From NCBI RefSeq assembly GCF_003044035.1, contig NZ_NVQC01000017.1:180001-212000 (forward strand): a stretch of DNA of 32,000 nucleotides, written 5' to 3'. This document shows, piece after piece, positions 8,154 to 32,000 of this stretch (the first letter of the stretch is position 1; each line of letters opens with the position of its first letter). The notes beneath the pieces were generated by a model. It was given only the letters and a program-made list of their open reading frames with translations. It had not been told where the DNA came from and searched no databases. Source of the DNA: Candidatus Methylomirabilis limnetica (GTDB lineage Bacteria; Methylomirabilota; Methylomirabilia; Methylomirabilales; Methylomirabilaceae). Position numbers and translations under genes: made by a program.

Positions 8154-8163
8154 AGCGCAAGAC

Positions 8164-14107: not shown

Positions 14108-14219
14108 CCGAAGCCGGGCAATCCTGAGAGTTGGGTGAGGCGGGGGAACCGAAGAGTGACCAGTTGGTCGCCTCGCGCCCCCCTCACCCCATCCCTAACG
14201 CTGTCAAGGAGATAAGGTT

Positions 14220-14768
14220 ATGCGCACCCTGGCCGGCCTGACCTTACTGCTCGTCTTGCACCTCTGCGCACCCGTTGGCCTCCTCGCCAAGGTGTTTTAC
14301 GCCAAGGACGAGGCCGTCAAGGCGGCGTTCCCAGAGGCTGACATCATCGAGAAGCAGACATTTTTTCTGACAAACGACCAGAAAAAGCAGATCGAGACCC
14401 TCGCACGCACGCCGCTAGATTCCAAGCTTGTGACGATGTACATCGGAAAACGAGGCCAGAAGCTACTCGGCTATGCAATGATTGACGTTCACACGGTACG
14501 GACCCTGCCGGAGGCTGCCATGGTTGTGCTCTCCCCGGAAGGGCGGGTGGCCTCCACACTAATTCTAGCCTTCTATGAGCCACTGGAATACCTCCCAAAT
14601 GAACGCTGGCTCAAGCAGTTCGATCAGGCAAGGCTCACCCCGGACCTCCGGGTGGGAGGAAAGATCGCGGGGATCACCGGGGCGACCTTGACGGCTCGGG
14701 CTATGTCTGAGTCGGTCCGTAAGGTTCTGGCCCTCTACCAGGTCTTGATCGAAAAAGGAGGGCGCTGA
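14220..14768 (+). CDS. Secreted FMN-binding domain protein with an ApbE flavinylation motif
   Basis: Signal peptide MRTLAGLTLLLVLHLCAPVGLLA. The C-terminal GKIAGITGATLTARAM matches the [S/T]GA[S/T] flavinylation site of NqrC/RnfG/NosR-type FMN_bind domains (Thr156 codon at 14685-14687). The stop overlaps the next ATG (TGATG). Confidence 0.75.
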   Translation: MRTLAGLTLLLVLHLCAPVGLLAKVFYAKDEAVKAAFPEADIIEKQTFFLTNDQKKQIETLARTPLDSKLVTMYIGKRGQKLLGYAMIDVHTVRTLPEAAMVVLSPEGRVASTLILAFYEPLEYLPNERWLKQFDQARLTPDLRVGGKIAGITGATLTARAMSESVRKVLALYQVLIEKGGR

Positions 14769-15268
14769 TGCGTTTCGTCGTCACGGGGGAGTGGACCCAG
14801 AATCGCCTCCTTCGTCTCATCATATTGTGGTTTCTCATCTACAGTGCAGGCCTTTGGCTGACCAACACATTACTCTTCTTGAATCAGATGGGGCTTCGTT
14901 ACGAGTCCGTCGTCGCCTTCTACCGGGGATCCGAGACGCAGTATTTGCTGCCACGCAGCTACAAGGTCTTGCTCGAGATCAGTCATTTCCATCTCCTGGC
15001 AATGGGCATCTTCATCTTGACGCTGAGTCACCTGGTGCTATTCGTGCCCCTTACGCCTCGAGTCAAGTACTGGCTGATCCACCTGACCTTCCTATCCGCG
15101 ATTTCAGACGAGGCCGCGGGCTGGCTGACCCGATTCGTACATCCCCTCTTCGCCTATTACAAGATCGGGGCTTTTGTTCTCCTCCAGACAACCATGGCAG
15201 TACTGATTATAGCTGTCCTACTCGCTGTGCGCCTGAAGGCGCGCAGTGCATACACAGAGGACGTTTGA
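14768..15268 (+). CDS. Four-TM integral membrane protein of unknown function, His-rich helices
   Basis: 166 aa with four hydrophobic segments. Histidines occur in or next to the helices (SHFHLLAMG, LSHLVLF, LIHLTF, FVHPLF). It is translationally coupled to the FMN-binding gene. Confidence 0.6.
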   Translation: MRFVVTGEWTQNRLLRLIILWFLIYSAGLWLTNTLLFLNQMGLRYESVVAFYRGSETQYLLPRSYKVLLEISHFHLLAMGIFILTLSHLVLFVPLTPRVKYWLIHLTFLSAISDEAAGWLTRFVHPLFAYYKIGAFVLLQTTMAVLIIAVLLAVRLKARSAYTEDV

Positions 15269-15293
15269 AAAACTTGAGATCAGGAGGGATATC

Positions 15294-16442
15294 ATGAACA
15301 ACTCGCGACAATCGTTTACCTACTACCGGTTGGGTCAATACCAGGGATTGAAGGTTCTCTTACTGCTGTTCGTCACGATGCTGATTGGGTGTACATCCGC
15401 CATAGCTCAACAGACCCGCACCTATCGCATCGCGGCTATCGAGGTGGACTGGGATTACGCGCCGACCGGCATCAACCAGATCAGCGGGAACGCGTTTGGA
15501 GAGAGCGAAAATGTCTTTGTTCAGAGCGGCAAACAGCGGATCGGCAAAGTGTACCGCAAGGCGGTCTACCGCGAGTACACCGATGCCGCCTTTACCGCCG
15601 CAAAAGCTGTCGCGCCGCAATGGGAGCATTTGGGTGCTCTGGGCCCCGTCATCCGCGGGGAGGTTGGTGATACCATCCAGGTTGTCTTCAAGAACATGAC
15701 CAGCTTTCCCACTAGCATCCACCCGCATGGCGTCTCATATCTCAAGAACTCCGAGGGGGCTCCGTACAACGATGGGACCTCTGGGGCCGACATGGCTGAC
15801 GATGCTGTCCCCTCTGGCGGGACCCACACCTATATCTGGCAGGTTCCAGAACGGGCAGGCCCGGGCCCGATGGACGGAAGCTCCGTCCTCTGGATGTATC
15901 ACGCCCACACCGATGAGCCGGCGGACACGAATACCGGCCTGGTCGGGCCGCTCATCGTCACACGCAAGGGAAACGCAAACCCTGACGGTTCCCCCAAAGA
16001 CATCGACCGGGAGTTTGTCACGCTGTTCACCGTCTTTAATGAGAACGCCAGCCACTATCTGGAGCACAATGTCAACCACTTTACCGGCAAGCCTAAGAAA
16101 ACGATGAAGAACCTGGATGATCCCGAGTTTCAGGAGAGTAACCTGATGCACTCCGTCAACGGCTACGTCTATGGCAACTTGCCTGGATTAACCATGCAGC
16201 AGGGCGAACGCGTGCGCTGGTACGTGCTGAGTATTGGAACTGAGGTCGATCTGCACACGCCGCACTGGCATGGCCAGACCGTCCTCTGGATGGGGAGTCG
16301 CATGGACATGGTGGAGCTCCTCCCGGGGAGTATGAAGACGATCGACATGGCACCGGACAACCCGGGAACATGGTTGTATCACTGCCACGTGAACGATCAC
16401 ATCACCGCTGGGATGATGGCGCTCTTTACGGTCACTGAGTAG
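15294..16442 (+). CDS. Two-domain multicopper oxidase, ceruloplasmin/hephaestin-like, predicted lipoprotein
   Basis: The start was moved to ATG 15294, with an AGGAGG 6 nt upstream. Lipobox LLFVTMLIGC. The ceruloplasmin-type opening is YRIAAIEVDWDYAP. All four MCO copper motifs are present: IHPHGV, MYHAHT, HTPHWHG and HCHVNDHITAGM. LVGPLIV is also present. Confidence 0.82.
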   Translation: MNNSRQSFTYYRLGQYQGLKVLLLLFVTMLIGCTSAIAQQTRTYRIAAIEVDWDYAPTGINQISGNAFGESENVFVQSGKQRIGKVYRKAVYREYTDAAFTAAKAVAPQWEHLGALGPVIRGEVGDTIQVVFKNMTSFPTSIHPHGVSYLKNSEGAPYNDGTSGADMADDAVPSGGTHTYIWQVPERAGPGPMDGSSVLWMYHAHTDEPADTNTGLVGPLIVTRKGNANPDGSPKDIDREFVTLFTVFNENASHYLEHNVNHFTGKPKKTMKNLDDPEFQESNLMHSVNGYVYGNLPGLTMQQGERVRWYVLSIGTEVDLHTPHWHGQTVLWMGSRMDMVELLPGSMKTIDMAPDNPGTWLYHCHVNDHITAGMMALFTVTE

Positions 16443-16597
16443 CCAGAACGCTTTGGAATGACAGGGATAAAGGTTTATGAAAATGTCAGGAGAAAGACAA
16501 ATTGTCCAGGTCAAGGCCTCATGGGCGGAGTTTTGCAAAACACACCTCACACGCCTGGTCGAAGAATAGATTATAACGTTCCCCAAAAACTAGTGTA

Positions 16598-17434
16598 ATG
16601 GAGATACCGATGGCCGCGAAACGATCGACGCAATCAACGGATTTGCCGGGCAGCGAGTTGGATCCGGCGAAAATGCCGGGTCACTGGCTCCTTGCCCGAC
16701 TTGGCAAGCGCGTCTTGCGCCCCGGAGGTCTCGGTCTAACGCGAGCGCTGCTCGATAGCTTGGCGATCGGACCGGACGACGACGTAGTCGAGTTCGCACC
16801 CGGCCTGGGCGTGACGGCGCGTATGATCCTGGAGCGGAAGCCTCGGCGCTATGTGGGCGTCGAGCGGGACGCAAAGGCAATGCAGTGGACGGCCCGACAA
16901 CTCCCCCGCAGCCCGAATGTATCAGTTATCGTCGGCGCCGCAGATCAAACGAATCAACCTGACGGCTCGGCATCGGTCGTCATCGGCGAGGCCATGTTGA
17001 GCATGCACACCCAGGAGCGAAAGCGCCTGATCGCGGCGGAAGCGTTCCGGCTCCTGCGTCCTGGGGGCCGCTACGGCATTCATGAGCTCGCTGTTGTTCC
17101 CGACGATATGCCGGCCGACCAAAAGCAGGAGATCGACGGTATGTTGTCGTCGGTGATCCATGTTGGCACCCGCTCCTTGCCAGAACACGAGTGGAGGGCC
17201 CTGTTGGAGGGAGTCGGATTCCGCGTCGTAGCGTCCGGATACGCGCCGATGCACCTGCTGAGGCCGCGGCGCCTAGTCCAGGATGAGGGGGTATTCGGAG
17301 CGCTGAGGCTCGCGAAGAACCTCCTACTCGATGGCGCGGCGCGGCGACGGGTAGTCGCGATGCGACGGGTGTTCGAGCATTATCGTAACAACCTGAGCGC
17401 GATCTTCCTCATCGCGCAGAAGGGTCTGGATTGA
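16598..17434 (+). CDS. Class I SAM-dependent methyltransferase
   Basis: Motif I VVEFAPGLGVTA and post-I/II LRPGGRYGIHEL. 278 aa. Convergent with the gvp cluster. Confidence 0.75.
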   Translation: MEIPMAAKRSTQSTDLPGSELDPAKMPGHWLLARLGKRVLRPGGLGLTRALLDSLAIGPDDDVVEFAPGLGVTARMILERKPRRYVGVERDAKAMQWTARQLPRSPNVSVIVGAADQTNQPDGSASVVIGEAMLSMHTQERKRLIAAEAFRLLRPGGRYGIHELAVVPDDMPADQKQEIDGMLSSVIHVGTRSLPEHEWRALLEGVGFRVVASGYAPMHLLRPRRLVQDEGVFGALRLAKNLLLDGAARRRVVAMRRVFEHYRNNLSAIFLIAQKGLD

Positions 17435-17692
17435 ACCGGCCTAGTAGCTCTGTTGTGCGCATGGGTGGTTGGGGTATGGCGCGTTGATACTCCGCCCGCT
17501 GTATGAGATGTGGGGAAAAGGCTGGGAGCACCGATCTCCTCGGTCCTCACGAGCCCTATGCCCATGAGATCCCGACCCCACTAGTCATTCGGGAGGATGT
17601 AAAGTTAGAGTACGGTGAGCGCCGTCCCACCGTTGGATGGGCTACGCTATCGAGATGTCAGGAGAGAGCTATCCGTTGACGGGTTGGCGTGA

Positions 17693-18037
17693 TCACATCA
17701 GGTCCCCGAGCGGCCCGAGCGACAGGTTGAGGTCGTCCTCGGCGAGGCCGAAGTGTGCCCGGAGTTCCACCATCTTCTCCTCCAGCCGGATGAAGGTCAC
17801 CCCCATCCGCTCGATCTCCTCGGAGGTGAGGGAGCCCCCCTCCATCCTTCGAAGGGCCTGACGCTCGAGAAGCTTTCTGAGGAGTTCGATGAGGGTGAGC
17901 ACGAGCTTGGCCAGCCCCTGCTCGACCTTCTCAGGGTCGGCGTTGATCCGTCTCGGCAGGGCCTGGGTGAGCTGCTCCAGCTCCCCCTCAAACTCCGCCA
18001 GAGAGCTCTCAGGCGCCGAGAGTGTCTTTGGTTTCAT
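17693..18037 (-). CDS. gvpK: Gas vesicle protein GvpK
   Basis: RINADPEKVEQGLAKLVLTLIELLRKLLERQALRRMEGGSLTSEEIERMG is the canonical GvpK core. The start was moved to ATG 18037 (MKPKTLSAPE), which gives a 29-nt overlap with the upstream gene. Confidence 0.88.
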   Translation of the reverse strand: MKPKTLSAPESSLAEFEGELEQLTQALPRRINADPEKVEQGLAKLVLTLIELLRKLLERQALRRMEGGSLTSEEIERMGVTFIRLEEKMVELRAHFGLAEDDLNLSLGPLGDLM

Positions 18038-18737
18038 CGTGGGCTCCGTTGACGAAGTGGTAGGGAGGCCAGGGGCCGGTGAGGAGGAAGCTAAGGCGGG
18101 GAAACTCTTCCCGGATCTTTGCCACGCCTTCACGGAAGGCGTCCACTCGATCCCGCTCCACCAGATAGGCCCCGGTGAGAAGCAGCCGCTCTGTGGGGAA
18201 CCGCTGGAGCCGGCTTTCCCCAGCCAGGGAGGGGAAAGAGGCCTGGAGCTCCTGAATCAACCGCTCCCCCGCCGCTCGAAACCTAGCCCGATGCCGCTCC
18301 TCCGTAAGCCTCCTGTGGAGGTATTCCGTTCCAGGGCCTTCATCGCTAGTCTTTTGATCCACCGCCGTGGCGGAGTCACCAGGCGGTTCCCAGAGCACCC
18401 TGAGCCCCAGCTCCACCTTTCCTGTCACCCGCTCCAGCGCAGAGCGGAATGGCCGAGCGCGTTCGTTGAGGAGCGCGATCGCAGCATCCTCAGTTCTGAA
18501 GAGCGTGTTGAAGCGGGCGGGAAGGACAGGGCGGGAGATCATCACCTCCTCTAGCACCGTCTCGTGGAGGGTCAGGTGGTCTTCGTCGACGGGCCATAGG
18601 GTGAGCGGCGACCGGCTGACCACAGCGGCTAGGTCCCCCTGCGGAACAAGGAAGACGGGACGCCTCCCGAGCCCAACGATCTGCTGTAACAGCGGCGGGG
18701 GGAAGGCGACGATCCCGTAAAGGTAGATCCCCTCCAT
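18009..18737 (-). CDS. GvpL/GvpF-family gas vesicle protein (paralog 5)
   Basis: The N-terminus MEGIYLYGIV...VFLVPQGDLAAVVS...LHETVLEEVM...VLPARFNTLF and the C-terminal LTGPWPPYHFV are hallmarks of the GvpL/F family. Confidence 0.85.
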   Translation of the reverse strand: MEGIYLYGIVAFPPPLLQQIVGLGRRPVFLVPQGDLAAVVSRSPLTLWPVDEDHLTLHETVLEEVMISRPVLPARFNTLFRTEDAAIALLNERARPFRSALERVTGKVELGLRVLWEPPGDSATAVDQKTSDEGPGTEYLHRRLTEERHRARFRAAGERLIQELQASFPSLAGESRLQRFPTERLLLTGAYLVERDRVDAFREGVAKIREEFPRLSFLLTGPWPPYHFVNGAHDETKDTLGA

Positions 18738-18740
18738 GGC

Positions 18741-18950
18741 TCACTCCTCGACGCTCTTAACACCCCATTCCCTAGCCGTTTCCACAGAGCAGAGGAGGAG
18801 CCGGAGACCAACATAGATGAGGTCCACATCGGCTACGGATAGGGTCACATCCCCCGCTACCACGACGCCCTTGTTGAGGAGGCGGTCCAGCGTCTCGAGG
18901 AGCGTGACCTGCCGTTCCAGGCTGGAAGCAGGCCGGCCGTTATCCTTCAT
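18741..18950 (-). CDS. GvpA/GvpJ-family small gas vesicle protein (GvpJ/M/S-like)
   Basis: TLLETLDRLLNKGVVVAGDVTLSVADVDLIYVGLRLLLCSVETA is a GvpA-fold core. The start was moved to ATG 18950 (MKDNGRP...). Confidence 0.82.
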   Translation of the reverse strand: MKDNGRPASSLERQVTLLETLDRLLNKGVVVAGDVTLSVADVDLIYVGLRLLLCSVETAREWGVKSVEE

Positions 18951-19743
18951 CGTCAAGCCTCGGGACAAAGTGGTATGGTGGCCAGGGGCCCGAGACAACG
19001 AGCCTGAAGGCTTCTTCGGCATGGCTCTGGTTCCACTGCTCCACCCCGGAGAGGAGGTCCTCCACTCCCTCCCGCCTCACGAGACAGGCCAGATTAAGCA
19101 CGATCCTCTCCCCCTCTCTGGCCTCGGGGAGGATGGAAGGATACTCCACCAGCTCCACCACTTTCCCCCGGAGGGCCTCCAGCGCCTGACTGGCAAGCGC
19201 ATCTTCACGCTCCTGGGATTTCGTCGAGGCGCTCTCCTCGATTTTTCTCTTGAGGAAGAATGCCAGCCCGGGCGGTTTAGTGCTTGCCTCGCGGGCCAAG
19301 GCAAGGAGCGCCGCATCGTTCTTGAGCACGGCGGCTCGAAGGGCCGTCCGGTCCGCGAACCCCTTCACGCCCCACTCGACCTTATCTCTCAGGAACTCCA
19401 GGGCCTCTTGGATGCGCCGAGTATTCCTCCGAATGACCGACCGGATCGTCCCCGCGTCAAGGAAGATAGTGCCAAACCTCATCGGGAGAAGCGGACCCGT
19501 GGCCAGAGCCGACTCCACGATCGACTCGTGAAGGCGCACTTTCTCCTCCAGCCAAGAGGGGTCCTCCAGGTTGCGGCGGAGAGCCTCCTCCCCGAACTCG
19601 GTCAGGGGGACCGGGCTGGACAGTGCCACGATCCCGTTCTCGGCGATGAGGCTCAAAGGAGAGTGCCCGTCGATTCCCATCATTGGCGGCAGGTCTCCGT
19701 GGGGGGAAAAAGCATAGAGGTACCAGCCAATCTCGGAAGGCAT
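18940..19743 (-). CDS. GvpL/GvpF-family gas vesicle protein (paralog 4)
   Basis: WYLYAF...IVALSSPV...LHESIVESA...LLPMRFGTIF...SGPWPPYHFV. ATG 19743 forms an ATGA overlap with the upstream stop. Confidence 0.85.
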   Translation of the reverse strand: MPSEIGWYLYAFSPHGDLPPMMGIDGHSPLSLIAENGIVALSSPVPLTEFGEEALRRNLEDPSWLEEKVRLHESIVESALATGPLLPMRFGTIFLDAGTIRSVIRRNTRRIQEALEFLRDKVEWGVKGFADRTALRAAVLKNDAALLALAREASTKPPGLAFFLKRKIEESASTKSQEREDALASQALEALRGKVVELVEYPSILPEAREGERIVLNLACLVRREGVEDLLSGVEQWNQSHAEEAFRLVVSGPWPPYHFVPRLDDEG

Positions 19744-20357
19744 CAGCGCTCCTTTGCGTCCCACAGTGGGAGCCGATCGATGAGAAACTCCACCTGGATT
19801 CCCTCTGGCAGGAGCCGATCCACTTCGTGCATCATCCCCAGGAAGAGGAGAGCCACTTCACCCTCCTCCAGGGTCTCGGCAATCCGCTGGGCGATGAAGG
19901 TGTCCCGCGCCTTCAGGATCTCCGCGCTCTCAGCAGCGTAGCTCCGCTTGGCCTCTTCCCGCTCGGCGTCTGTCTGGGCCTCGGTGATCTGCTTAACGTG
20001 GGCGTACTCTCGAAGTAAGAGCTCTGGTGACTCGGTCCCAATCAGCTTCGCCCCCTTGTCAACCAGCTCAAGGACGATCTGGTAGTTCTTACTCCCCTGG
20101 GCTGCCACACCCCGCGCAATCTCCAGCTCTTTCCCCGAGACGGGCAGGCCGTCCTGATAGATCCTGACCCGCTCCCACGGGAGATTCCTGATCAGGAGCT
20201 TCGCCCTGATCCCCTCCCAGACATCATCAATGACCCGTCGGCTCCGCTCCCAGCTTTCGACCCCGAATCGTCTGATGGACTCCTGCCGGAGCGCCTCCGA
20301 CTTGGACCCCATATCCGCCATGGTGTGAATGATGGGGACGTAGATGAGCCGCCTCAT
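19743..20357 (-). CDS. Hypothetical protein embedded in the gvp cluster (204 aa from ATG 20357); no family recognised
   Basis: MRRLIYVPIIHTMADMGS...RIYQDGLPVSGKELEIARGVAAQGSKNYQIVLELVDKGAKLIGTES...ALLFLGMMHEV. There is no TM segment. It is tightly packed: 4 nt after the receiver gene stop, and its own stop overlaps the next ATG. Confidence 0.6.
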   Translation of the reverse strand: MRRLIYVPIIHTMADMGSKSEALRQESIRRFGVESWERSRRVIDDVWEGIRAKLLIRNLPWERVRIYQDGLPVSGKELEIARGVAAQGSKNYQIVLELVDKGAKLIGTESPELLLREYAHVKQITEAQTDAEREEAKRSYAAESAEILKARDTFIAQRIAETLEEGEVALLFLGMMHEVDRLLPEGIQVEFLIDRLPLWDAKER

Positions 20358-20361
20358 CGCG

Positions 20362-23829
<3,468 letters not shown>

Positions 23830-23833
<4 letters not shown>

Positions 23834-24345
23834 GCGCTCTTGCCGGCCTTAGCGACAGTGACCTCCAGGATGCCGTTCCGGTAGGAGGTCTTCAGCGATT
23901 CCTGCTTTCCCTTGGCAGGGAGGAGAATCTCTTTGCTGTACTTCCGGTCCTTGCCCTCGGCGGAGATGGTGAGAATGTCATCTTTCAGCTCTACCCGGAC
24001 GTCACCGGTATCCACTCCGGGCATCTCGGCAATCACTCGGATGGCCTCGTTCTCATCGAAGACGTCTACCAGCGGCTCCCGCACCTCCTCGACCACGGCC
24101 CCCGCTTCGCCCTTCTTGATGTTGCCGAAGGTCTCGACGGTGGGTTCGCCCCCCAGGCCGACCTTGACGTTGAAGCCGTACACTCCTCTCAGATCTTTAA
24201 GCCGCCCTTTCCCCCTGAGCTCCCCCGTGCGAGTCGTCTCGGTCTTCCCCTCCGCCTCCATCTCCTTGAGGAGCTCGATGAGGTCGCCAATTCCCTTGAA
24301 GAGGTCGCCGAGGCCGAATCCCGCTCCACCTTTTCGCTCTGTCAT
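23830..24345 (-). CDS. Hsp20/alpha-crystallin family protein (GvpH-like)
   Basis: Alpha-crystallin domain: VDVFDENEAIRVIAEMPGVDTGDVRVELKDDILTISAEG...SKEILLP...SYRNGILEVTV. The start was moved to ATG 24345, with a GGGAGGAAG RBS. Confidence 0.82.
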
Positions 24346-24361
24346 ATCTTCCTCCCATGCC

Positions 24362-24655
24362 TTACCCGCCGAGGCGGGCCTCAAGTCGGTCAAGCCGCTC
24401 CTTGAGTTGATGGTTCTCCTCTTCCAGGACCCTGGCCTTCGAGGAGAGGGCGGGGTCGCTCTGCCACCAGTCGATTCCCATCTCCTTGGCCTTCTCCACC
24501 GAGGCGACCAGGAGCCGGATCTTGATGGTCAACAACTCGACGTCGGCGAGGCAGATCTTGATGTCGCCGGCGATGACGATCCCCTTGTCGAGGACCCGTT
24601 CCAGGATGTCAGCCAGGCTGGTGGTCTGGATGCTGTGGGGGATGTTCTGTGGCAT
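24362..24655 (-). CDS. gvpJ: Gas vesicle protein GvpJ
   Basis: SLADILERVLDKGIVIAGDIKICLADVELLTIKIRLLVASVEKAKEMGIDWW is the canonical GvpJ core, followed by a C-terminal coiled tail. Confidence 0.88.
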   Translation of the reverse strand: MPQNIPHSIQTTSLADILERVLDKGIVIAGDIKICLADVELLTIKIRLLVASVEKAKEMGIDWWQSDPALSSKARVLEEENHQLKERLDRLEARLGG

Positions 24656-24664
24656 GTCGTCCCC

Positions 24665-24859
24665 CTACCGTCCCACTCTGGCCGGCTCGACCCTCGCCCC
24701 GCAGGACGGACAGAACTTGTAGTCATCCTTGTAGATGTACCGCCACGTTCCCCCGCACTCGGGGCATCGCCGTGTTAACGGCTCCCCGCACTTCGTGCAA
24801 TGCTTGAGCGCCCCCCACGTCGTCTCCCCACACCCCGGACACTTGAATGACCCTACCAT
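24665..24859 (-). CDS. Double zinc-ribbon protein (four CxxC pairs), 64 aa
   Basis: MVGSFKCPGCG...HCTKCG...RCPECGG...FCPSCGA. ATG 24859 lies 4 nt after the gvpG stop. The longer track N-terminus overlaps gvpG. Confidence 0.6.
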   Translation of the reverse strand: MVGSFKCPGCGETTWGALKHCTKCGEPLTRRCPECGGTWRYIYKDDYKFCPSCGARVEPARVGR

Positions 24860-24863
24860 AGCG

Positions 24864-25196
24864 TTACACCTCCCCTTCATGCGGGGGCCCACCGCTGCCA
24901 GTCACGGCATCGCCCCCACCGGTCTCCGCAGGGCCTGGCACCGCCTCACCTCCCGCCAACTCCACCTCTTCGTCGGCCTGCCGGACGGCATTGAGCCTCG
25001 CCTCCCATTCCGCTGCTTGCACAGTGTACTCCGCCTCGCCGATCTCGTCCATCTCGTAGAGGAGTTGGAGTTCCAGGAGCTTTTCCTGGATGTACCCCTC
25101 ATCGTTCTGCTCCCGGTCGGCCATCTCGTGGATCTTCTCGAAGACGCCGATGAGGCCCTTGAAGGGGAGCGCGATGAGATCGTCAATGAGGAGCAT
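24864..25196 (-). CDS. gvpG: Gas vesicle protein GvpG
   Basis: MLLIDDLIALPFKGLIGVFEKIHEMA...LLELQLLYEMDEIGEAEY is the canonical GvpG N-terminus. An AGGAGAGG RBS is present. Confidence 0.85.
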   Translation of the reverse strand: MLLIDDLIALPFKGLIGVFEKIHEMADREQNDEGYIQEKLLELQLLYEMDEIGEAEYTVQAAEWEARLNAVRQADEEVELAGGEAVPGPAETGGGDAVTGSGGPPHEGEV

Positions 25197-25207
25197 GAAT
25201 TCCTCTC

Positions 25208-25951
25208 CTAGACCTGAATGACCAGGTTCACGAAGTTGAAGGGGGGGAACCCCCCCACATACTTGAACCTGACCATCTCCCGATACCGCTCAGCCAGCTC
25301 GTCCATTCTCCGATCAAAGGCCGCCTCCTGGTCCCGGTCTATCAGGAAGGCCGCATTCATGATCATCCGCTCCCCCAGGAGCCGATTGGTCAGGCGGAAG
25401 TCGTGACAGGCCCCCTTCAGCGCCTCCACGATCTCCTCCCGGACTCTATCCTTCTCGACCTTAAGGGCCGCCTCCACCATCCTCCCAACCTCGACAAGCT
25501 GCCAGTGGGCCTGCTGGGGAGGCAGTTTGGCGATGGCCTCTTTCCGCCTCCGGATCTCCCCGTATCGCTCGAGAATCTCTTGGTATATGAGCGTTTCGTT
25601 GAAGATCGCCTTCACCCCCACCTCCACCTTTCCGCGCATCCGCTCCAGGAGGCCCCTGAACTCGACATACTCCCGCTCCAGGATGGCCCGCACCCTCGCT
25701 TCGTTCTCGGCAATAGTGCAGAATCGGGCGGGCAGGACAGTATGGCATTTGAAGACGGCCTCAATGGCCCGCTCGTGAACCAGCGAGTTCTCCCGAGAGA
25801 CGGGATAGCGCATGACGGGGGAGTCGCTCACGATGGCTGCAATGTCGCGATACGCGATGGCGGTCAACTCATCATCCCGGCCGCCGATTCCTAAAAGGCC
25901 GAAGCTCTCCTCTCGAGCCTCATCCGTGACGCAATAGATGTACTTTCCCAT
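25208..25951 (-). CDS. GvpL/GvpF-family gas vesicle protein (paralog 3)
   Basis: MGKYIYCV...IAYRDIAAIVS...VHERAIEAVF...VLPARFCTI...YVGGFPPFNFV. The start was moved to ATG 25951. Confidence 0.85.
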   Translation of the reverse strand: MGKYIYCVTDEAREESFGLLGIGGRDDELTAIAYRDIAAIVSDSPVMRYPVSRENSLVHERAIEAVFKCHTVLPARFCTIAENEARVRAILEREYVEFRGLLERMRGKVEVGVKAIFNETLIYQEILERYGEIRRRKEAIAKLPPQQAHWQLVEVGRMVEAALKVEKDRVREEIVEALKGACHDFRLTNRLLGERMIMNAAFLIDRDQEAAFDRRMDELAERYREMVRFKYVGGFPPFNFVNLVIQV

Positions 25952-25970
25952 AGAGGAAATCCCTTCTGAG

Positions 25971-26723
25971 TCACTCGTCAGGGTGGAGGATGATGTTGAC
26001 AAAGTTGTAAGGGGGGACTGGCCCCACGTAGGCGAACTTCACGCGTTCCCGGTATCGAAGGGACAGCCGCTCCATCTGGTCGTCGAACTCCTTCTCCCTG
26101 GCCCGATCCACCAGGAATGCAGCGTTGAGGAACATCCTGTCGCCGACGGTCGCGTTGAGACGGTGCTCCGCAGCCAGACGCCTCAATACCCAGAGGATCT
26201 GCTCTCCCTCCCCCTCCTTCTTCGCCTCCAGGGCGGCCTGGACCATCTTGCCGATGGCGATCCGCTGAGGATGGGTCTGACGGGACGGCTGCCTGGCGAT
26301 CTCCGCCTTCAGATGCTTAATCGCCTCGTTCTCATCCACGATCTCCTGGAAGAGGAGATCCATCTCCCGCCAGAAGGCCTTCACCCCCAGCTCCACCTTC
26401 CCGTCCAGGTCTCGCAGGAGATGTTTCAGTTCCTGGTACCGCCGCTCCAGGAGCTGCCGGATCTCCTCAGCGTTCTGGGCGACAGTGCAGTATCTGACCG
26501 GGAGGACAGTATGCTCGTTCATGACTCGCTCCAGTACCCGCTCATGGGCCAGGAGGTTCGCCTTGCTGACCTCATACTTGCGCAAGGGTGCAGTACTCAT
26601 GACCGCGCTGAGATCCCGGTAGGCGATGGTCTCGACCTCCCGGCCGCCCAGGCCGATGGGGCCGAAGTTCCTTTCCTCGTTGGTCCCGATGATCGCATAC
26701 AGGTACTTCCCCTCCTCACGCAC
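25971..26723 (-). CDS. GvpL/GvpF-family gas vesicle protein (paralog 2)
   Basis: GKYLYAIIG...IAYRDLSAVMS...AHERVLERVM...VLPVRYCTV...YVGPVPPYNFV. GTG start at 26723 with an AGGAG RBS. It overlaps the upstream gene by 8 nt. Confidence 0.85.
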   Translation of the reverse strand: MREEGKYLYAIIGTNEERNFGPIGLGGREVETIAYRDLSAVMSTAPLRKYEVSKANLLAHERVLERVMNEHTVLPVRYCTVAQNAEEIRQLLERRYQELKHLLRDLDGKVELGVKAFWREMDLLFQEIVDENEAIKHLKAEIARQPSRQTHPQRIAIGKMVQAALEAKKEGEGEQILWVLRRLAAEHRLNATVGDRMFLNAAFLVDRAREKEFDDQMERLSLRYRERVKFAYVGPVPPYNFVNIILHPDE

Positions 26724-27768
26724 CGGCGGGCTCCTGAGACAATTGAAAGAGTTTTACTGCCACAGTGTCCAGGACGTCTGGCGCGCGAAAGGATGAGCCC
26801 ACCTGGCTGTATTCCCCCAGAAGCCGGTAGGCCCGCGTCACCGCCTCGAATGCGCCGTTGGCCTTCTGGCCGACCTTGCCCCCATCGGAGATAAGGTCTG
26901 GATGGCACTGCTGGACGAGCCGCCGGTAGGCCTCCTTGGCATCCTGAAGGGTGGCCTGTTCCCCCAGTTCCAAGAGCCGCCGCGCGGAGTCAATCTCCTC
27001 AAACTCGAATGACCTGACCTCAACGGTGGCAAAACTGTATGGGGGAAGTGGCCCCACGCAGCGAAAATCGATGGCGTTGTCGTATCGGTTGTTCAGCCGC
27101 TCCAGAGCCTTGCCGACTTCTCCTTCCCTGTCCCTGTCCACCAAGAAGGCGGTGTTCAGGATCATTCGATCGTCCAGAAGAGCATGAGGGCAGAGGCCGT
27201 GGGCCAAGGGCTTGAGGGCTAGGGCGATCTCAGCGCCCAGGGCCTCCCGTCGCTGATCCAGCCGGACCTTGACCATCTGACCGACTCTGATCCGTTCTTC
27301 CGTGGTCTCCTGCGGGGACCGGTCCGCGATTGCGGCCCTGTTCTGCCTGATCTCCGGCTCTTCGCCGATCTGCCGTAACACCGAAATGAGGTCGCGCCAC
27401 TGGGCCACCAGGTTGAGCTCAATCTTCCCCTCCATAGCCTCCAGGGCGGCCGTAAGCTGGGGGTAGCCTGACTCCAGGATCTTCCGCACCCGGGCCTCAT
27501 CCCGAGCCATAGTCCCGAACTTCACGGGTACCACTGTCTGGCGCTTCATGACCTGCTCGAGGACGACCTGATGGGTGAAGAGGTATGGGATGACCTCCTC
27601 CTTCTTCATGGACTTGTAGGCCCGGATAGGAGTGAGGCTGACGAGAGCTGTCAGACCGCGATGGCAGACGTCTGAGACCTGACGCCCATCGAGGCCGATC
27701 AGGCCGGAGTCTACCTGCACGCCATTCCCGAGAACACAGTAGAGGTGGAGGGCTTCCATAATTATCAT
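26716..27768 (-). CDS. GvpL/GvpF-family protein fused to a C-terminal DnaJ J-domain
   Basis: The N-terminal ~270 aa is GvpL/F-like (LHLYCVL...LTALVS...THQVVLEQVM...VVPVKFGTM...CVGPLPPYSF). The C-terminus is RRLLELGEQATLQDAKEAYRRLVQQCHPDLISDGGKVGQKANGAFEAVTRAYRLLGEY, with J-domain helices I-III and an HPD tripeptide (codons 26896-26904, checked on the sequence as CAT CCA GAC). ATG 27768 forms an ATGA overlap with the upstream stop. Confidence 0.85.
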   Translation of the reverse strand: MIIMEALHLYCVLGNGVQVDSGLIGLDGRQVSDVCHRGLTALVSLTPIRAYKSMKKEEVIPYLFTHQVVLEQVMKRQTVVPVKFGTMARDEARVRKILESGYPQLTAALEAMEGKIELNLVAQWRDLISVLRQIGEEPEIRQNRAAIADRSPQETTEERIRVGQMVKVRLDQRREALGAEIALALKPLAHGLCPHALLDDRMILNTAFLVDRDREGEVGKALERLNNRYDNAIDFRCVGPLPPYSFATVEVRSFEFEEIDSARRLLELGEQATLQDAKEAYRRLVQQCHPDLISDGGKVGQKANGAFEAVTRAYRLLGEYSQVGSSFRAPDVLDTVAVKLFQLSQEPAGA

Positions 27769-28166
27769 CCCTTCGCTTGGACGAGTGCCTGGACAACGCC
27801 CTTGCCGCGGCACGCCAGGCAGGGGAGCTTGCTGTTGGCCTCAATCCCGCTGCCCCGGCACTGGCGGCATTCGGTGAAGGGCTCTTTGACGGGGACGACC
27901 CCTTTGCCCCGACAGACAATGCAAGTAATGTTGGTCTGGGGATTGGCCTCACCCCTTCCACCGCAATAGGCGCAGATGATAGCCGGTGGGTCAACTTCCA
28001 CACTGCCTGCACCCCGGCAGACGGGGCATTGGATCCCCTTCGAGCGGGGGAGGACTCCGGTCCCGCGACAGAAGGCGCAGGAGAAGATCCTCCCCGGGAC
28101 GACCTCTCGCCCCCTCTTTGCGGCCGTCCCCCTCCGCCAGGAGCCCCACTCCATCAGCTTCATCAT
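27765..28166 (-). CDS. Stand-alone DnaJ-type cysteine-rich zinc-finger protein, six CxxCxGxG repeats (paralog B)
   Basis: CAFCRGTG, CPVCRGAG, CAYCGGRG, CIVCRGKG, CRQCRGSG, CLACRGKG. 133 aa, with no J-domain and no substrate-binding C-terminal domain. Confidence 0.8.
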   Translation of the reverse strand: MMKLMEWGSWRRGTAAKRGREVVPGRIFSCAFCRGTGVLPRSKGIQCPVCRGAGSVEVDPPAIICAYCGGRGEANPQTNITCIVCRGKGVVPVKEPFTECRQCRGSGIEANSKLPCLACRGKGVVQALVQAKG

Positions 28167-28195
28167 GATACCCTATCCCCTCCCCAGTGATCTCA

Positions 28196-28516
28196 TCAGT
28201 AGTTCATGGAGAACGTTTTCCACTTCTTCGCGGGGGCGTTCCGCGCTGTTGCCGTTTCCCCTGCATTGCTGGGGCGTTCTGACTGAGCCGGCCGCTCCAG
28301 GTCCTCCATCTGCCGATGGATATCAGAGAGACGCTTCTGGATTCCCTGGCTGCGCTTGGCCAGGAGGGCCGCCTCCTTGTCGAGCCGCCCCTTCTCCACC
28401 CGCAGCATGTAGAGCTCGAGGTAGGTGGACCCCTGCCTCCGGGGTATGGCGCGCTGGCCGGTGGTGTGCAGGCTCCGGATGTCCCGGAGCCCAGTGACGT
28501 CCGTGACCCCTCTCAT
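28196..28516 (-). CDS. Coiled-coil gas-vesicle accessory protein, possibly GvpV-like
   Basis: 106 aa. STYLELYMLRVEKGRLDKEAALLAKRSQGIQKRLSDIHRQMEDLE. The position shortly after gvpN and the coiled-coil character recall GvpV of cyanobacterial and Serratia clusters, but that assignment is from memory only. Confidence 0.4.
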   Translation of the reverse strand: MRGVTDVTGLRDIRSLHTTGQRAIPRRQGSTYLELYMLRVEKGRLDKEAALLAKRSQGIQKRLSDIHRQMEDLERPAQSERPSNAGETATARNAPAKKWKTFSMNY

Positions 28517-28529
28517 GGCTGCCTCCCGA

Positions 28530-28697
28530 TCACCGGGCGCTCTCGCGCGCGGAGAGTAGAAGCTGCTTCTTCTTGCTGGCCCCCACCACCTTCAACTCCA
28601 CCAGTTGGCCGGCCTTGAGCCCCACTTCCAGCCGGATGTTGTTGGGGATGGAGAGCTTCCCATCGGCGTCTACCTTTGCAAAGGCTCGCATCAGCAT
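28530..28697 (-). CDS. AbrB/SpoVT/MazE-fold small protein (55 aa), not in the ORF track
   Basis: My translation is MLMRAFAKVDADGKLSIPNNIRLEVGLKAGQLVELKVVGASKKKQLLLSARESAR. A GGAGG RBS lies 8 nt upstream (28706-28710). It sits 15 nt after the gvpN stop, and its own stop is 13 nt before the next ATG. The pattern AKVDxxGKLxIPxxIRxxxGLKxGxxVEL is the SpoVT-AbrB swapped-hairpin motif. Confidence 0.65.
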   Translation of the reverse strand: MLMRAFAKVDADGKLSIPNNIRLEVGLKAGQLVELKVVGASKKKQLLLSARESAR

Positions 28698-28712
28698 CAG
28701 AGCCACCTCCCC

Positions 28713-29633
28713 TCAGCAGTATTGTTTGACGATCTTCTTCACCAGCTCCCTGACCTTGGCCTGATTGCTCTTGCTCCCCACCCGACTCGTCTCCGAGGCC
28801 AGAATGTCCTGGCAGACCTGCCGGAAGACTCCACTGGACCCCTTGACGTGGCCATTGAGCACCGTGAGGGATCTGGCGATCATGATCGCGCCGCGGACGG
28901 TGGGAGAGAATTCACACGCTCCCGACTCCCGGAGGGCCCGGACGACCTTGACGATCTTCTCCGCCTCCTTCCGGGGGAGACCGGACTTAGCCTGGGTGAT
29001 GGCGGCCTCCGTTTCCTCATCGAAGTGGTCCAAGTCCATGGTGATCATTCGGTCGCGGAGGGCATCCTGGCTCCGGTGGACGCCGGCGTACTCCTCGGGG
29101 TTCGAGGTGAAGATCGCCGTGAAGTTCGGATCGACCCTCAAGTAGGTCTCCTCCCCCCCACGACGGATGGGGAGGTCCAGCATCCGCTCCTGGAGAATGG
29201 CGAGAAAGATGTTGTTGGCCTCGGGCCGGGAGCGGGTGAACTCGTCGTAGATGAGGGTGAAGCCGTACTTGCAGGCAATGGTGAGGCGGTTATCGACCCA
29301 CCGCTTGACCATGTCTTCCTCGACCTTCAGGACCCGGGAAACGAAGCGGTCAATGACCTTCCTCAGGTGATAGCCGTACTCTCCTCCCACCAGGTCCGAG
29401 GTGGTGTACTCTTCGTCGCCGTGGATTAGCACGACAGGACGTTCGAGCTTCGAGGCCACATGGAGGGCCAGGGTGGTCTTGCCCGTGCCGGAGGCCCCCC
29501 GGAAGTGAATCGGGAAGCCCGCCTTGATATAGCCCATGGCCCGTTCGGTGAGGTCTTTGACATGCTTTGTTTCCACAAAATCCGGCAACGGGGCAGGCTC
29601 GATGACCGTGCTGAGTTCCTCTATACCTCTCAT
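28713..29633 (-). CDS. gvpN: Gas vesicle AAA+ ATPase GvpN
   Basis: FVETKHVKDLTERAMGYIKAGFPIHFRGASGTGKTTLALHVA...VLIHGDEEYTTSDLVGG...LIYDEFTRSRPEANN is the canonical GvpN sequence. Confidence 0.9.
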   Translation of the reverse strand: MRGIEELSTVIEPAPLPDFVETKHVKDLTERAMGYIKAGFPIHFRGASGTGKTTLALHVASKLERPVVLIHGDEEYTTSDLVGGEYGYHLRKVIDRFVSRVLKVEEDMVKRWVDNRLTIACKYGFTLIYDEFTRSRPEANNIFLAILQERMLDLPIRRGGEETYLRVDPNFTAIFTSNPEEYAGVHRSQDALRDRMITMDLDHFDEETEAAITQAKSGLPRKEAEKIVKVVRALRESGACEFSPTVRGAIMIARSLTVLNGHVKGSSGVFRQVCQDILASETSRVGSKSNQAKVRELVKKIVKQYC

Positions 29634-29642
29634 GGATACCTC

Positions 29643-29981
29643 CTATACAGGGAGCGCAGGACGGCGGGGGATCGCGCCTCTCCCACGGCAGTGAGTGCAT
29701 GGAAGGCCATTCCCAGCGGTGCGCCCGCTTCCCCGGCAGTCAGGGCACGCTTCTCCGGGTCCCCCGAATCGCACGACTCCCTTTCCCCCGCAGACCTGGC
29801 ACGTGACCCTCATGCCATAGGGCTGGATCCCGCTCCCGCGACAGTAGACGCACATCCCATTGGGCTCCTCGACCATGACCGTACCTTTTCCCCCGCAGAC
29901 CTGGCACCTGGACAGGCGCGAGAGGCAGTTAAAGGGGTCGGACCCCTTCCCCTGGCAGAAGGCGCACCGGATTGCCGTCAT
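29643..29981 (-). CDS. Stand-alone DnaJ-type cysteine-rich zinc-finger protein, six CxxCxGxG repeats (paralog A)
   Basis: CAFCQGKG, CQVCGGKG, CVYCRGSG, CQVCGGKG, CPDCRGSG, CTHCRGRG. 112 aa. The repeat spacing is the same as in the 27765-28166 protein. Confidence 0.8.
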   Translation of the reverse strand: MTAIRCAFCQGKGSDPFNCLSRLSRCQVCGGKGTVMVEEPNGMCVYCRGSGIQPYGMRVTCQVCGGKGVVRFGGPGEACPDCRGSGRTAGNGLPCTHCRGRGAIPRRPALPV

Positions 29982-30543
29982 CTCTTCCCCCGTTTACTCT
30001 CCCGGCGCAGCACCGGGATTGAATGGCTCTGAGGGTGGCCTTGAACTCTTTGACCCTGACGGGGCCACCGTTGGACAGAAGCCCCTGCAAGGCCCGGGTT
30101 AGCTCCTCCTGCTCGCCTTGGAACTCGGCCAGGAGGGTCTTGACTTCCCGCTCCCGCTCTTCACGCCTGGCCGTGATCTCTTCCAGCAGTTCCTTGAGAC
30201 CGCCGACCCGTTGCGCTTCACCCCTGGCCAGGGCTTCCCGCAGGGTGGCGGCCAGTGTCCTCTGTTCATGGAGGTAGTGCTTCATCGTCCCCCTGACCGC
30301 TTCCTCCCGCTCCCGTTGGTGGGCGAGGACCCCCTCCATCATGGCATCGAAGTCCCGCCTCCGGAGGGAGGCGGCCCTGGCTAGGGCCTCCTTGAGCTGG
30401 GCCCGCATCTCTTCTCGCTGGCTTCGAAACGTTCCCAGCATCTCGTGGGTGGACTCGACGATCTGCTCCACCGACGAGACCCTGGCCTCGTAGGAGGCGA
30501 TGACCTCCCGGGCCAGGAGCGCCATCTCCTCCCCCCTTCCCAT
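29929..30543 (-). CDS. Arg/Glu-rich coiled-coil protein (paralog 2); candidate gas-vesicle shell-associated protein; start uncertain (30543 or 30525)
   Basis: MALLAREVIASYEARVSSVEQIVESTHEMLGTFRSQREEMRAQLKEALARAASLRRRDFDAMM..., with repeated R/E heptad-like segments. The 3' end overlaps the next gene by 52 nt. Confidence 0.55.
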   Translation of the reverse strand: MGRGEEMALLAREVIASYEARVSSVEQIVESTHEMLGTFRSQREEMRAQLKEALARAASLRRRDFDAMMEGVLAHQREREEAVRGTMKHYLHEQRTLAATLREALARGEAQRVGGLKELLEEITARREEREREVKTLLAEFQGEQEELTRALQGLLSNGGPVRVKEFKATLRAIQSRCCAGRVNGGRDDGNPVRLLPGEGVRPL

Positions 30544-30586
30544 CGGGCTTACCTGAACGCTTCTCTTTCCTCTCAACTCTTCCCTC

Positions 30587-31201
30587 TCATCTGCCGCCGG
30601 CGCGCTTCCCCGCCATCGTGGCGGTCATATTCCGCCAATGACCAGCCATGGCCTCCTGCTCCCGGCGAAAGCCAGCCAGCATGCCTCCGACCTCCTGGGC
30701 CCGCTGCTCGCTCCCGCGGTAGAAGCGATTCATGAGTTCGGCGGTTTCCCCACTTCTCTCCTCCTGGCGAGCCCGAATACCCTGGTGCATCGCCCGGAAG
30801 TCTCTCAGCCGGGTAGACTCGGAAGTGCTGAGGAATCGCTTGAGGTCCGCTGCCTTCCGCCTGAGGTCGTGGCGAAACTCCTTCAGCTTTGCCGCGGTCT
30901 CATCCCTCAGCGCCGCCACCCTTGCCACTCGTGTGTCGAACGAATTGACGATCTCCTGGGCCAGATCCCGCATATCCTCGGCCAGTGTCATTGTGCCGAC
31001 CCTCCCTTCTTGCGTCATCCCCTCCTGGGGGAAGAAGTGAACCCTTTCAGGAGCTCTCTTTCCTTTTTTCTTCGATCCCATGTTCCCCTCCCAGGGCGTT
31101 AACACGCCCCACGTGTCCTCAGGTTGGACTAGAGGGAGATCCTGGCGAGGCATACTCTCTGCGGTTGTCCGCTCAAGGATGCCCCGGCAGACACCCCTCA
31201 C
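30587..31201 (-). CDS. Arg/Glu-rich coiled-coil protein (paralog 1); the true start is probably ATG 30991 (134 aa)
   Basis: The core MTLAEDMRDLAQEIVNSFDTRVARVAALRDETAAKLKEFRHDLRRKAADLKRFL...RDFRAMHQGIRARQEER aligns by eye with the N-terminus of the 29929-30543 protein. ATG 30991 has a GGGAGGG RBS 8 nt upstream. The track start at 31201 is a GTG, and the stretch from 30992 to 31201 has no convincing coding features. Confidence 0.55.
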   Translation of the reverse strand: MRGVCRGILERTTAESMPRQDLPLVQPEDTWGVLTPWEGNMGSKKKGKRAPERVHFFPQEGMTQEGRVGTMTLAEDMRDLAQEIVNSFDTRVARVAALRDETAAKLKEFRHDLRRKAADLKRFLSTSESTRLRDFRAMHQGIRARQEERSGETAELMNRFYRGSEQRAQEVGGMLAGFRREQEAMAGHWRNMTATMAGKRAGGR

Positions 31202-31217
31202 TGGTTCCAGGCCGACC

Positions 31218-31433
31218 TTACGCCGGTGCCGCCGCTGTAGCGGTCAGGCCGATGGCCTCAGCATACTTCAGGTACGTCTCGACGGAGGCCACCACCACCC
31301 GGGCCTCGATAGCCAGGAGCTCGATCCCAACCAGGGAGACGCGCACCCAGGCATCGATGACCACACCCTTGTCCAGGATCCGATCGATCACCTCAACCAG
31401 ACTTGACGACGCGATTGCCTTCTCCACTGCCAT
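31218..31433 (-). CDS. gvpA: Major gas vesicle structural protein GvpA
   Basis: [63 protein letters not shown] is near-identical in pattern to cyanobacterial GvpA. The ATG is at 31433 with an AAGGAGGTG RBS 7 nt upstream. The track's TTG at 31439 is rejected. Confidence 0.95.
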
Positions 31434-31461
31434 TGTCAATCACCTCCTTTCGGTTTTTCCC

Positions 31462-31489
31462 CTTGCCACCGTTCACCGGCTCTGGCAAA
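31462..31489. promoter_or_regulatory. Palindrome TTGCCA-N14-TGGCAA in the 61-nt gap between the response regulator and gvpA
   Basis: TTGCCA at 31463-31468 and TGGCAA at 31483-31488. The only intergenic gap directly upstream of gvpA contains this dyad. It may be a regulator site or an RNA hairpin. Confidence 0.3.
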
Positions 31490-31494
31490 GGGCT

Positions 31495-31869
31495 CTATAC
31501 GCCCTCCCTGATGGCACGCTTCAGGAGGGTCGTGACGTGATGGAGTTCAAAGGGCTTGCTGATGAAGCCCTGGAAATCGCCTCTCCTTATCCCCTCCACG
31601 ATTGGCTGATCCTCCTCGTAGTGGTAACCCGAGATCATCAGGATTGGCAGCCGGGGAACAAGCCGCCGGATGACGTGAGAGACCTCGATACCGCTCATGC
31701 CGGGGAGTTTCACGTCGATGATGGCAGCGTCAAACCTCCGCCCTTGCACCTGACGCATCGCATCCTCCCCACGGTAGACGTGGGTAATGTGGACCCCCTC
31801 GTCCTTCAGGCCTATCTGTAGGGCCCAACAAATGTCCTTTTCGTCATCCACGACGAGGACCTCAAGCAT
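31495..31869 (-). CDS. Receiver-only response regulator
   Basis: 124 aa. [30 protein letters not shown] and FISKPF, with no output domain. Its ATG overlaps the end of the upstream kinase gene (ATGCTTGA). Confidence 0.85.
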
Positions 31870-32000
31870 CTGAACCCTCCGCAGGCAGGATGACAGTGAA
31901 CGTCGAGCCCTTCCCTACCTCGCTCTCGACTCGGATCGTTCCCCCATGCTGGTGAACGAGGCTGTAGGCGATAGAGAGACCCAGCCCCGTCCCTTGCCCC
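31862..32000 (-). CDS. Sensor histidine kinase, C-terminal fragment (5' part lies outside the window)
   Basis: My minus-strand translation is [45 protein letters not shown]-stop. It shows the HATPase_c G2 box and C-terminus. It is not in the ORF track because it is edge-truncated. Confidence 0.8.

Follow-up and report, generated by a model that had tools for sequence, protein, structure and literature searches.

A gas-vesicle GvpL/F protein fused to a J-domain in Candidatus Methylomirabilis limnetica: a widespread and apparently overlooked architecture

The GvpF-J gene: domains, spread and origin

The 32,000-nucleotide stretch analysed here, from the genome of the methane-oxidising bacterium Candidatus Methylomirabilis limnetica (hereafter, the window) contains a gas-vesicle (gvp) cluster, and all coordinates of cluster genes given below refer to the minus strand. 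The gene of interest, at 26716-27768, is a continuous open reading frame (ORF) of 350 amino acids (aa) encoding a GvpL/GvpF protein fused to a DnaJ-type J-domain; we call it GvpF-J. Pfam finds both domains in this single frame, as an earlier reading made from the letters of the window (the sequence-only reading) had proposed. The fusion is real, widespread and apparently overlooked. NCBI places the start at 27759, giving 347 aa, with a GGGA Shine-Dalgarno-like motif 8 nucleotides (nt) 5′ of that ATG, and lists a 347-aa protein from Candidatus Methylomirabilis limnetica that is 100% identical to the GvpF-J of the window. Its name there is only "GvpL/GvpF family gas vesicle protein"; the J-domain is ignored in database names. 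The alternative ATG at 27768 overlaps the stop codon of the upstream zinc-finger gene (ATGA), while the stop codon of GvpF-J overlaps the GTG with which the following GvpL/F gene begins.

The GvpL/GvpF domain occupies aa 7-247 (27028-27750; PF06386, E=1e-59, 203 bits against a cutoff of 23.6) and is matched by Foldseek to 6l5d_B. It is followed by the J-domain, aa ~253-318 in the 347-aa numbering (26806-27003), which comprises helices I-III and the His-Pro-Asp (HPD) motif and is recognized by Pfam, profile search, AlphaFold2, Foldseek and hhalign. The Pfam DnaJ match (PF00226, E=1.3e-7) covers aa 265-318 and reaches 32.1 bits, the gathering cutoff being 27.8. The HPD codons, CAT-CCA-GAC, are read from 26904 to 26896 and encode aa 286-288, directly after helix II; this is exactly the position given by the sequence-only reading. 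That reading had also placed the J-domain at residues ~275-340 and at the very end of the protein. Both points need correction: the domain lies further towards the N-terminus, and a conserved tail of ~30 aa comes after it (26719-26805; motif Y-C/S-Q..SFR..DV...AV.L). The tail is predicted to form a short helix and then a β-strand, and in the structural model this strand may pair with the strand at 245-250, fixing the J-domain against the GvpF body (predicted template-modelling score, pTM, 0.84).

PF06386 and PF00226 are the only Pfam matches in the chain, and Pfam and NCBIfam find in it no glycine/phenylalanine-rich (G/F) region, no zinc finger and no DnaJ C-terminal domain. The NCBIfam DnaJ_bact model scores 23.6 bits against a cutoff of 377, far from what a full class A or B DnaJ would give. 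Because the G/F, zinc-finger and DnaJ C-terminal domains are missing, GvpF-J is a class C (type III) J-protein, and a DnaJ ortholog is excluded. NCBIfam holds no model for the combination of GvpF with a J-domain.

The assignment of the C-terminal segment as a J-domain, on the evidence of sequence profiles and predicted structure, is firm. Family-level statistics are strong, unlike the near-threshold Pfam scores of single sequences. A profile built from 69 full-length homologs (A1) matches the GvpF crystal structures 6l5d (E=1e-29) and 4qsg (E=3e-26), and its positions 262-319 match dozens of J-domain structures, including that of E. coli DnaJ (1bqz) and the DnaK-bound 5nro_B, at E~1e-13. When a profile of the C-terminal family (A2) is compared with residues 1-77 of E. 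coli DnaJ by hhalign, DnaJ residues 8-59 are aligned with a probability of 98.65% (E=4.8e-16); the alignment is gapless across helix II and the HPD motif and has 27% identity over 52 aa. Thus, the profile search of the C-terminus by which the sequence-only reading would have stood or fallen returns a J-domain with each of these methods.

The AlphaFold2 model computed from A1 has a mean predicted local distance difference test (pLDDT) score of 92.2 and the pTM given above. Its N-terminal part has the two-domain α/β fold of GvpF (target-normalised TM-score of 0.84 against 6l5d_B, E=5e-16, Foldseek), whereas the C-terminal part retrieves J-domain structures with a Foldseek probability of 1.00; 5nro_B is superimposed with a root-mean-square deviation (rmsd) of 1.5 Å over 58 residues. 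The elements predicted after the GvpF body are a strand (245-250), helix I (253-262), helix II (271-285), the HPD motif (286-288), a low-confidence loop (289-296), helix III (297-318), a short helix (326-331) and a strand (333-338). Residues K275, Y278, R279 and R280 of GvpF-J align with R22, Y25, K26 and R27 of DnaJ, and F304, A310, Y311 and L314 align with F47, A53, Y54 and L57; we take these helix II and III residues to be those that contact DnaK. Among homologs, the positions that match DnaJ Y25, K26/R27, F47, A53, Y54 and L57 are conserved; R279, F304 and Y311 are at least 90% conserved, and A310 and L314 are invariant.

The spread of the fusion was assessed in three collections. The best 120 homologs were taken from 5.8 billion proteins; 119 of them, down to 39% identity and from NCBI, ENA, JGI and Logan assemblies, contain both Pfam domains, and all 119 have the HPD motif. 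One genome per GTDB species was scanned with the C-terminal segment, and the best 80 of 301 stretches were kept as loci; together with four found by contig look-up, they make up 84 related loci, many of which are truncated. Of the 84, 80 yielded a GvpF-J ORF, each with an intact HPD. The 80 loci of the species scan belong to NC10/Methylomirabilota, Omnitrophota, Nitrospirota, Rokubacteria, Desulfobacterota, Planctomycetota (including Scalindua rubra), Chloroflexota (including Oscillochloris sp. ZM17-4), Actinomycetota, Acidobacteriota, Verrucomicrobiota, Bacillota, Alphaproteobacteria, Gemmatimonadota, Zixibacteria, Patescibacteria, Saganbacteria and WOR-3; the fusion spans more than 15 bacterial phyla. 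An exhaustive phmmer search with the last 119 aa against 1.84 billion representatives of 50%-identity clusters gave 169 matches at E<=1e-10. Among the 148 new representatives listed, the GvpF N-terminal domain is present in every one of the 102 with a length of 300 aa or more, and the HPD motif in 144; the exceptions read HPA, QPD and HRG, with one apparent frameshift. These four members (P0209, P0224, P0244 and P0158) could be natural loss-of-function variants or sequencing errors.

Overall, HPD is retained in ~343 of the 347 sequences examined, and the motif is, as judged from this conservation, under purifying selection. In a neighbour-joining tree (a rough tree without bootstrap), the J-bearing GvpF domains group together in a single clade that excludes the J-less paralogs from their own clusters. 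Because they form one clade, the tree suggests a single ancient origin of the fusion, which we consider probable.

It should be noted that the sequence-only reading had allowed for the fusion being a frameshift or assembly error and had left its distribution as a question. An artefact of sequencing, assembly or gene calling is refuted, for practical purposes completely. The reading frame is uninterrupted; the same architecture occurs in assemblies from NCBI, ENA, JGI and Logan and in the 84 related loci, 80 of which come from genomes chosen to represent GTDB species; and the fusion lies on a finished plasmid of a cultured strain. Frameshift and assembly errors are excluded because the architecture recurs in hundreds of independent assemblies, from more than 15 phyla, in which HPD is essentially invariant.

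The cultured strain is Octadecabacter arcticus 238, a gas-vacuolate Roseobacter, in which the fusion (WP_015497776.1) is encoded on plasmid pOA238_160 (locus L087, 13266-14348). It matches PF06386 with E=3e-42 and PF00226 with 28.0 bits, and its HPD motif is intact. The cluster of this strain is simpler, being without Cdc48, Hsp70 and zinc-finger genes. The gvp cluster of Octadecabacter has been described with no mention of a J-domain (PMC3646047). Full-text searches of the open-access literature gave no description of gas vesicles linked to a J-domain, DnaJ, Hsp70 or an in-cluster Cdc48, in agreement with the statement in the sequence-only reading that no J-domain-bearing Gvp protein had been described. 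In our opinion, O. arcticus 238 offers a cultured entry point for experiments on the fusion.

Hsp70 and other proteostasis genes in the clusters

GvpF-J is the first of three tandem GvpL/F paralogs, as had been recognized earlier; the second and third, at 25971-26723 and 25208-26002, are identified by Pfam and have no J-domain. Two more paralogs (18940-19764 and 18009-18737) bring the number of GvpL/F genes in the cluster to five, just one of which carries the J-domain. The setting is that of a gvp cluster, with gvpA, gvpN, gvpG and gvpK all present: GvpA, which is the major shell protein and presumably the final client, is encoded at 31218-31439; a GvpN-type AAA_5 ATPase at 28713-29633; GvpG at 24864-25196; a GvpA/J-family protein at 24362-24655 (the last three identified by Pfam); and GvpK at 17693-18133, at the distal end.

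Interspersed with these are genes for proteins of a proteostasis type. Two encode standalone DnaJ-type zinc-finger proteins, each with six CXXCXGXG motifs: one at 27765-28166 (PF00684, E=6e-13; NCBIfam DnaJ central region), which is translationally coupled to GvpF-J through the ATGA overlap, and one at 29643-29981 (Pfam, NCBIfam). With the J-domain on GvpF and the zinc fingers standing alone, the arrangement looks like a DnaJ split over separate genes. A small heat-shock protein (sHsp) of the Hsp20/α-crystallin family, identified by Pfam and passing the NCBIfam "archaeal Hsp20" cutoff, is encoded at 23830-24393; its gene overlaps by 4 nt that of a Get3/TRC40/ArsA-family ATPase (22877-23833), which may serve hydrophobic Gvp proteins as a holdase or in targeting. 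At 20733-22925 lies the gene for a Cdc48-family double-AAA ATPase (TIGR01243, 962 bits).

Many of the same genes are found by tblastn in the 84 related loci: Cdc48 in 57, Hsp20 in 55, GvpN in 54, DnaJ-type zinc-finger ORFs in 41, Get3/ArsA in 27 and a DnaK-type Hsp70 in 22. The typical order is response regulator, gvpA, coiled-coil ORFs, in some cases a zinc finger, gvpN, a small AbrB/MazE-like ORF, Hsp20, Cdc48-like AAA+, GvpF-J, GvpF/L paralogs, gvpG and gvpJ/K. The proteostasis set of such clusters consists of GvpF-J, often a DnaK-type Hsp70 without GrpE or DnaJ, an sHsp, a Cdc48-like AAA+ protein, a Get3/ArsA-like ATPase and zinc-finger proteins. One candidate was rejected: the protein of locus L081 in which tblastn had suggested both a J-domain and a zinc finger is a plain zinc-finger protein without a J-domain.

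The sequence-only reading had proposed that the fusion would direct DnaK to gas vesicles. The related clusters lend this proposal support, since many contain same-strand DnaK-type genes, some abutting the fusion; the window, which has no Hsp70 gene, does not. Where a GvpF-J ORF was extracted, 21 of 79 loci have an Hsp70 gene no more than 10 kb away, and its strand is always that of the gvp genes. The proportion is 17/30 where the sequence continues for at least 9 kb downstream and 9/19 where it does so on both sides. In four loci of Anaerolineae, the order is Hsp20, Hsp70, GvpF-J, and the Hsp70 stop codon is 2-21 nt before the GvpF-J start; Hsp20 usually flanks the Hsp70 gene in other clusters as well. 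Examples on the gvp strand are found in L003 (12167-13906), L032 (7456-9288), L040 (1941-3770) and L063 (17162-18874), and further ones in L065, L068, L074, L076, L083 and other loci. In L063, taken from a 3.4-Mb contig of Desulfatiglandales, the Hsp70 gene has a gvpJ-like gene and a histidine kinase/response regulator pair to one side of it, and to the other Hsp20-like and ArsA genes; being flanked on both sides by cluster genes, it lies inside the cluster. Neither GrpE nor the DnaJ C-terminal domain was detected by tblastn in any locus, although weak homologs may escape the distant E. coli queries used. Because neither is detectable, the cluster Hsp70s do not correspond to adjacent housekeeping grpE-dnaK-dnaJ operons.

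The cluster Hsp70s fall into three lineage groups that are about 45-50% identical to each other. Members of the Desulfobacterota group, together with that of L003, are without the nucleotide-binding-domain insert of E. coli DnaK, to which they are 45-47% identical; the Planctomycetota group shows 41-45% identity, and the Anaerolineae group, in which the insert is present, 54-56%. A single monophyletic "gvp-Hsp70" family was considered and dropped in favour of these lineage-specific groups. The Hsp70 of L063 scores 681 bits with TIGR02350, below the DnaK cutoff of 822, and passes the PRK00290 cutoff. R167, N170, T173 and a hydrophobic interdomain linker, presumably the classic elements by which Hsp70 responds to a J-domain, are kept in all cluster Hsp70s compared.

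Possible role of the fusion

A J-domain with an intact HPD motif stimulates the Hsp70 ATPase and thereby promotes client loading, and in class C J-proteins the second domain provides specificity. By analogy, the closest functional counterparts of GvpF-J are client-specific class C J-proteins such as HscB, acting with IscU and HscA, and auxilin, acting with clathrin and Hsc70. Like these, GvpF-J combines an HPD-containing J-domain with a domain that would target it to a particular client or site, and it often adjoins a dedicated Hsp70 gene, as hscB adjoins hscA. Unlike in HscB and auxilin, the targeting domain is a gas-vesicle protein, and the J-domain is C-terminal, between two short β-strands. 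The N-terminal 247 aa share family and fold with GvpF/GvpL (PF06386; structures 4QSG of Microcystis and 6L5D of Anabaena), and GvpF-J likewise resides in a gvp cluster (gvpA, N, G, J, K) as one of several paralogs; the J-domain and the conserved tail are additional, and the J-bearing members form a clade of their own. To our knowledge, neither the J-domain nor the tail occurs in the GvpF/L proteins characterised from Halobacterium, cyanobacteria, Bacillus megaterium and Serratia.

Compared with E. coli DnaJ, a class A Hsp40, GvpF-J has a homologous J-domain, and the CXXCXGXG zinc-finger module is also found in the gvp cluster. The modules are, however, on separate genes; the standalone zinc fingers have six CXXCXGXG motifs each whereas DnaJ has four, and DnaJ C-terminal substrate-binding domains and GrpE were not found in the gvp loci. 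The zinc-finger proteins also recall BSD2 of plants, which serves Rubisco, and Bacillus anti-TRAP, small assembly-specific holdases consisting almost entirely of CXXCXGXG motifs. They differ from these in being members of gvp clusters, and in NC10 and related lineages there is translational coupling between one of them and GvpF-J.

On this basis we consider it probable that GvpF-J is a class C J-protein that brings Hsp70 to GvpA, to an assembly intermediate or to another Gvp client, likely for assembly of the shell. The GvpF body would act as the targeting module. The J-domain would dock on ATP-bound Hsp70 and trigger ATP hydrolysis through its HPD loop, whereupon Hsp70 would clamp onto the GvpA or other Gvp client carried by GvpF. 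As partner, Methylomirabilis would use its housekeeping DnaK, and many other lineages a DnaK-type paralog encoded in the cluster. The arrangement would most likely serve to keep GvpA soluble and to hand it over in a controlled manner during nucleation and growth of the shell, with the sHsp, the DnaJ-type zinc-finger proteins and the AAA+ ATPases acting alongside as holdase or remodelling components. Published work on individual components is consistent with such a role. Of the accessory proteins of Halobacterium salinarum, GvpF alone has been found to bind GvpA; it is proposed to shield the hydrophobic β-hairpin of GvpA, keeping it soluble (PMC7688916). In E. coli, GvpA is proteotoxic when expressed in the absence of assembly factors (PMC12848028).

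Several observations weigh against this reading. No Hsp70 gene is present in the 32,000-nt window, or within 10 kb in the second NC10 locus (L011), so that in M. limnetica the assumed partner is the housekeeping DnaK, encoded outside the window. The density of Hsp70 genes, ~22 in 1.0 Mb of loci, exceeds the roughly one per 1-3 Mb of a typical genome and speaks for the linkage, but this yardstick is a genome-wide estimate and not one from matched J-less gvp clusters. The single-sequence PF00226 scores are near the threshold of 27.8 bits in both M. limnetica (32.1) and Octadecabacter (28.0). In the AlphaFold2 model, the canonical helix IV is missing and is replaced by the short helix and strand, and the loop after HPD is long and variable. 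In addition, the GvpF of cyanobacteria is reportedly located at the gas-facing surface of the vesicle, beyond the reach of Hsp70. The absence of helix IV, the variable loop and the modest Pfam score would also agree with the J-like module being a structural remnant that no longer engages Hsp70. We regard this as very improbable: HPD is retained in ~343/347 sequences from more than 15 phyla, the DnaK-contacting residues of helices II and III are conserved, and Hsp70 genes are linked to the fusion.

The direction of the process is harder to judge. GvpF-J might instead serve disassembly and quality control, recognising collapsed or mis-assembled GvpA sheets from which Hsp70, the sHsp and the Cdc48-like unfoldase would extract and recycle GvpA, much as auxilin and Hsc70 uncoat clathrin. 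Of 52 other loci with a Cdc48-family AAA+ gene on the same strand, 39 have this gene directly upstream of GvpF-J, Hsp20 occurs in 55/84 loci, mostly beside Hsp70, and an sHsp, Hsp70 and AAA+ protein together form the classical disaggregation triad. The sequence level does not separate disassembly from assembly. Nevertheless, the fusion gene is surrounded by genes for nucleation and assembly, the systems studied cannot assemble vesicles without GvpF/L proteins (PMC7688916), and the Octadecabacter cluster has the fusion with neither Cdc48 nor Hsp70. Because GvpF/L proteins are assembly factors, and because the Octadecabacter fusion is accompanied by no Cdc48 or in-cluster Hsp70, we give assembly more weight and consider disassembly rather unlikely. 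Another alternative is regulation, in which DnaK binding would control how active or how stable the nucleation complex is and so link vesicle output to proteostasis, as DnaK and DnaJ do for sigma-32, with no Gvp client being chaperoned. J-domain proteins do serve regulation elsewhere, and response regulators, histidine kinases and sigma-54 activators are found in the clusters. However, a dedicated, co-transcribed Hsp70 together with an sHsp and holdase-like zinc-finger proteins fits the handling of a bulk client better, and a regulatory role is, in our opinion, improbable.

How the highly hydrophobic GvpA stays soluble and enters the growing gas-filled shell is a central open question, and the roles of GvpF/L have remained vague. 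A conserved J-domain on a GvpF paralog would offer a concrete mechanism, with GvpF as client adaptor and Hsp70 as motor, the latter encoded in the cluster itself in many lineages. A broader proposal is that at least 15 phyla share an undescribed class of gvp clusters with its own proteostasis set, in which an Hsp70 cycle targeted by GvpF-J is obligatory for building or recycling the GvpA shell; this we advance only tentatively, as a possibility that falls somewhat short of being likely. If true, a protein-shelled organelle of prokaryotes would for the first time be seen to depend on an Hsp70 pathway, and the failure of many gvp clusters to assemble in E. coli might be explained. Matching Hsp70 and J-protein co-expression, or the choice of host, could rescue non-assembling clusters. 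Gas vesicles are engineered as acoustic reporter genes, and their heterologous expression causes proteotoxic stress (PMC12848028).

Other genes of the cluster and its surroundings

The gvp cluster of the window appears to end at gvpK (17693). The genes in 1-17434 look unrelated to gas vesicles and include those for an oxidoreductase dependent on flavin adenine dinucleotide, an ABC transporter (binding protein, permease and ATPase), ApbE, a multicopper oxidase and a methyltransferase. A scan of 17000-32000 for promoters and terminators gave 0 promoter-like sites and fewer terminator-like sites than expected from shuffled sequence. Transcription of the M. limnetica gvp cluster in situ is reported in a paper citing Graf 2018 (PMC11008690).

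Two single-domain response regulators are encoded in the cluster, at 31495-31869 and 20362-20736, with counterparts in L001, L002 and L063, and clusters of other lineages contain sigma-54 activators and histidine kinases. We take this set to resemble the GvrA, GvrB and GvrC regulators of Serratia. A 58-aa AbrB/MazE-like protein (28530-28706) adjoins gvpN and is also found in L003, and a 75-aa double-zinc-ribbon protein (24665-24892) is encoded between gvpG and the gvpA/J-like gene, as well as in L002. Two charged ORFs rich in Arg, Glu and Ala (29929-30576 and 30587-31201), situated between gvpA and gvpN, are coiled-coil-like and have no significant family match; their counterpart in L063 (3076-4581) gives weak apolipoprotein-like matches. 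These ORFs could encode GvpC-like shell-stiffening proteins or scaffolds.

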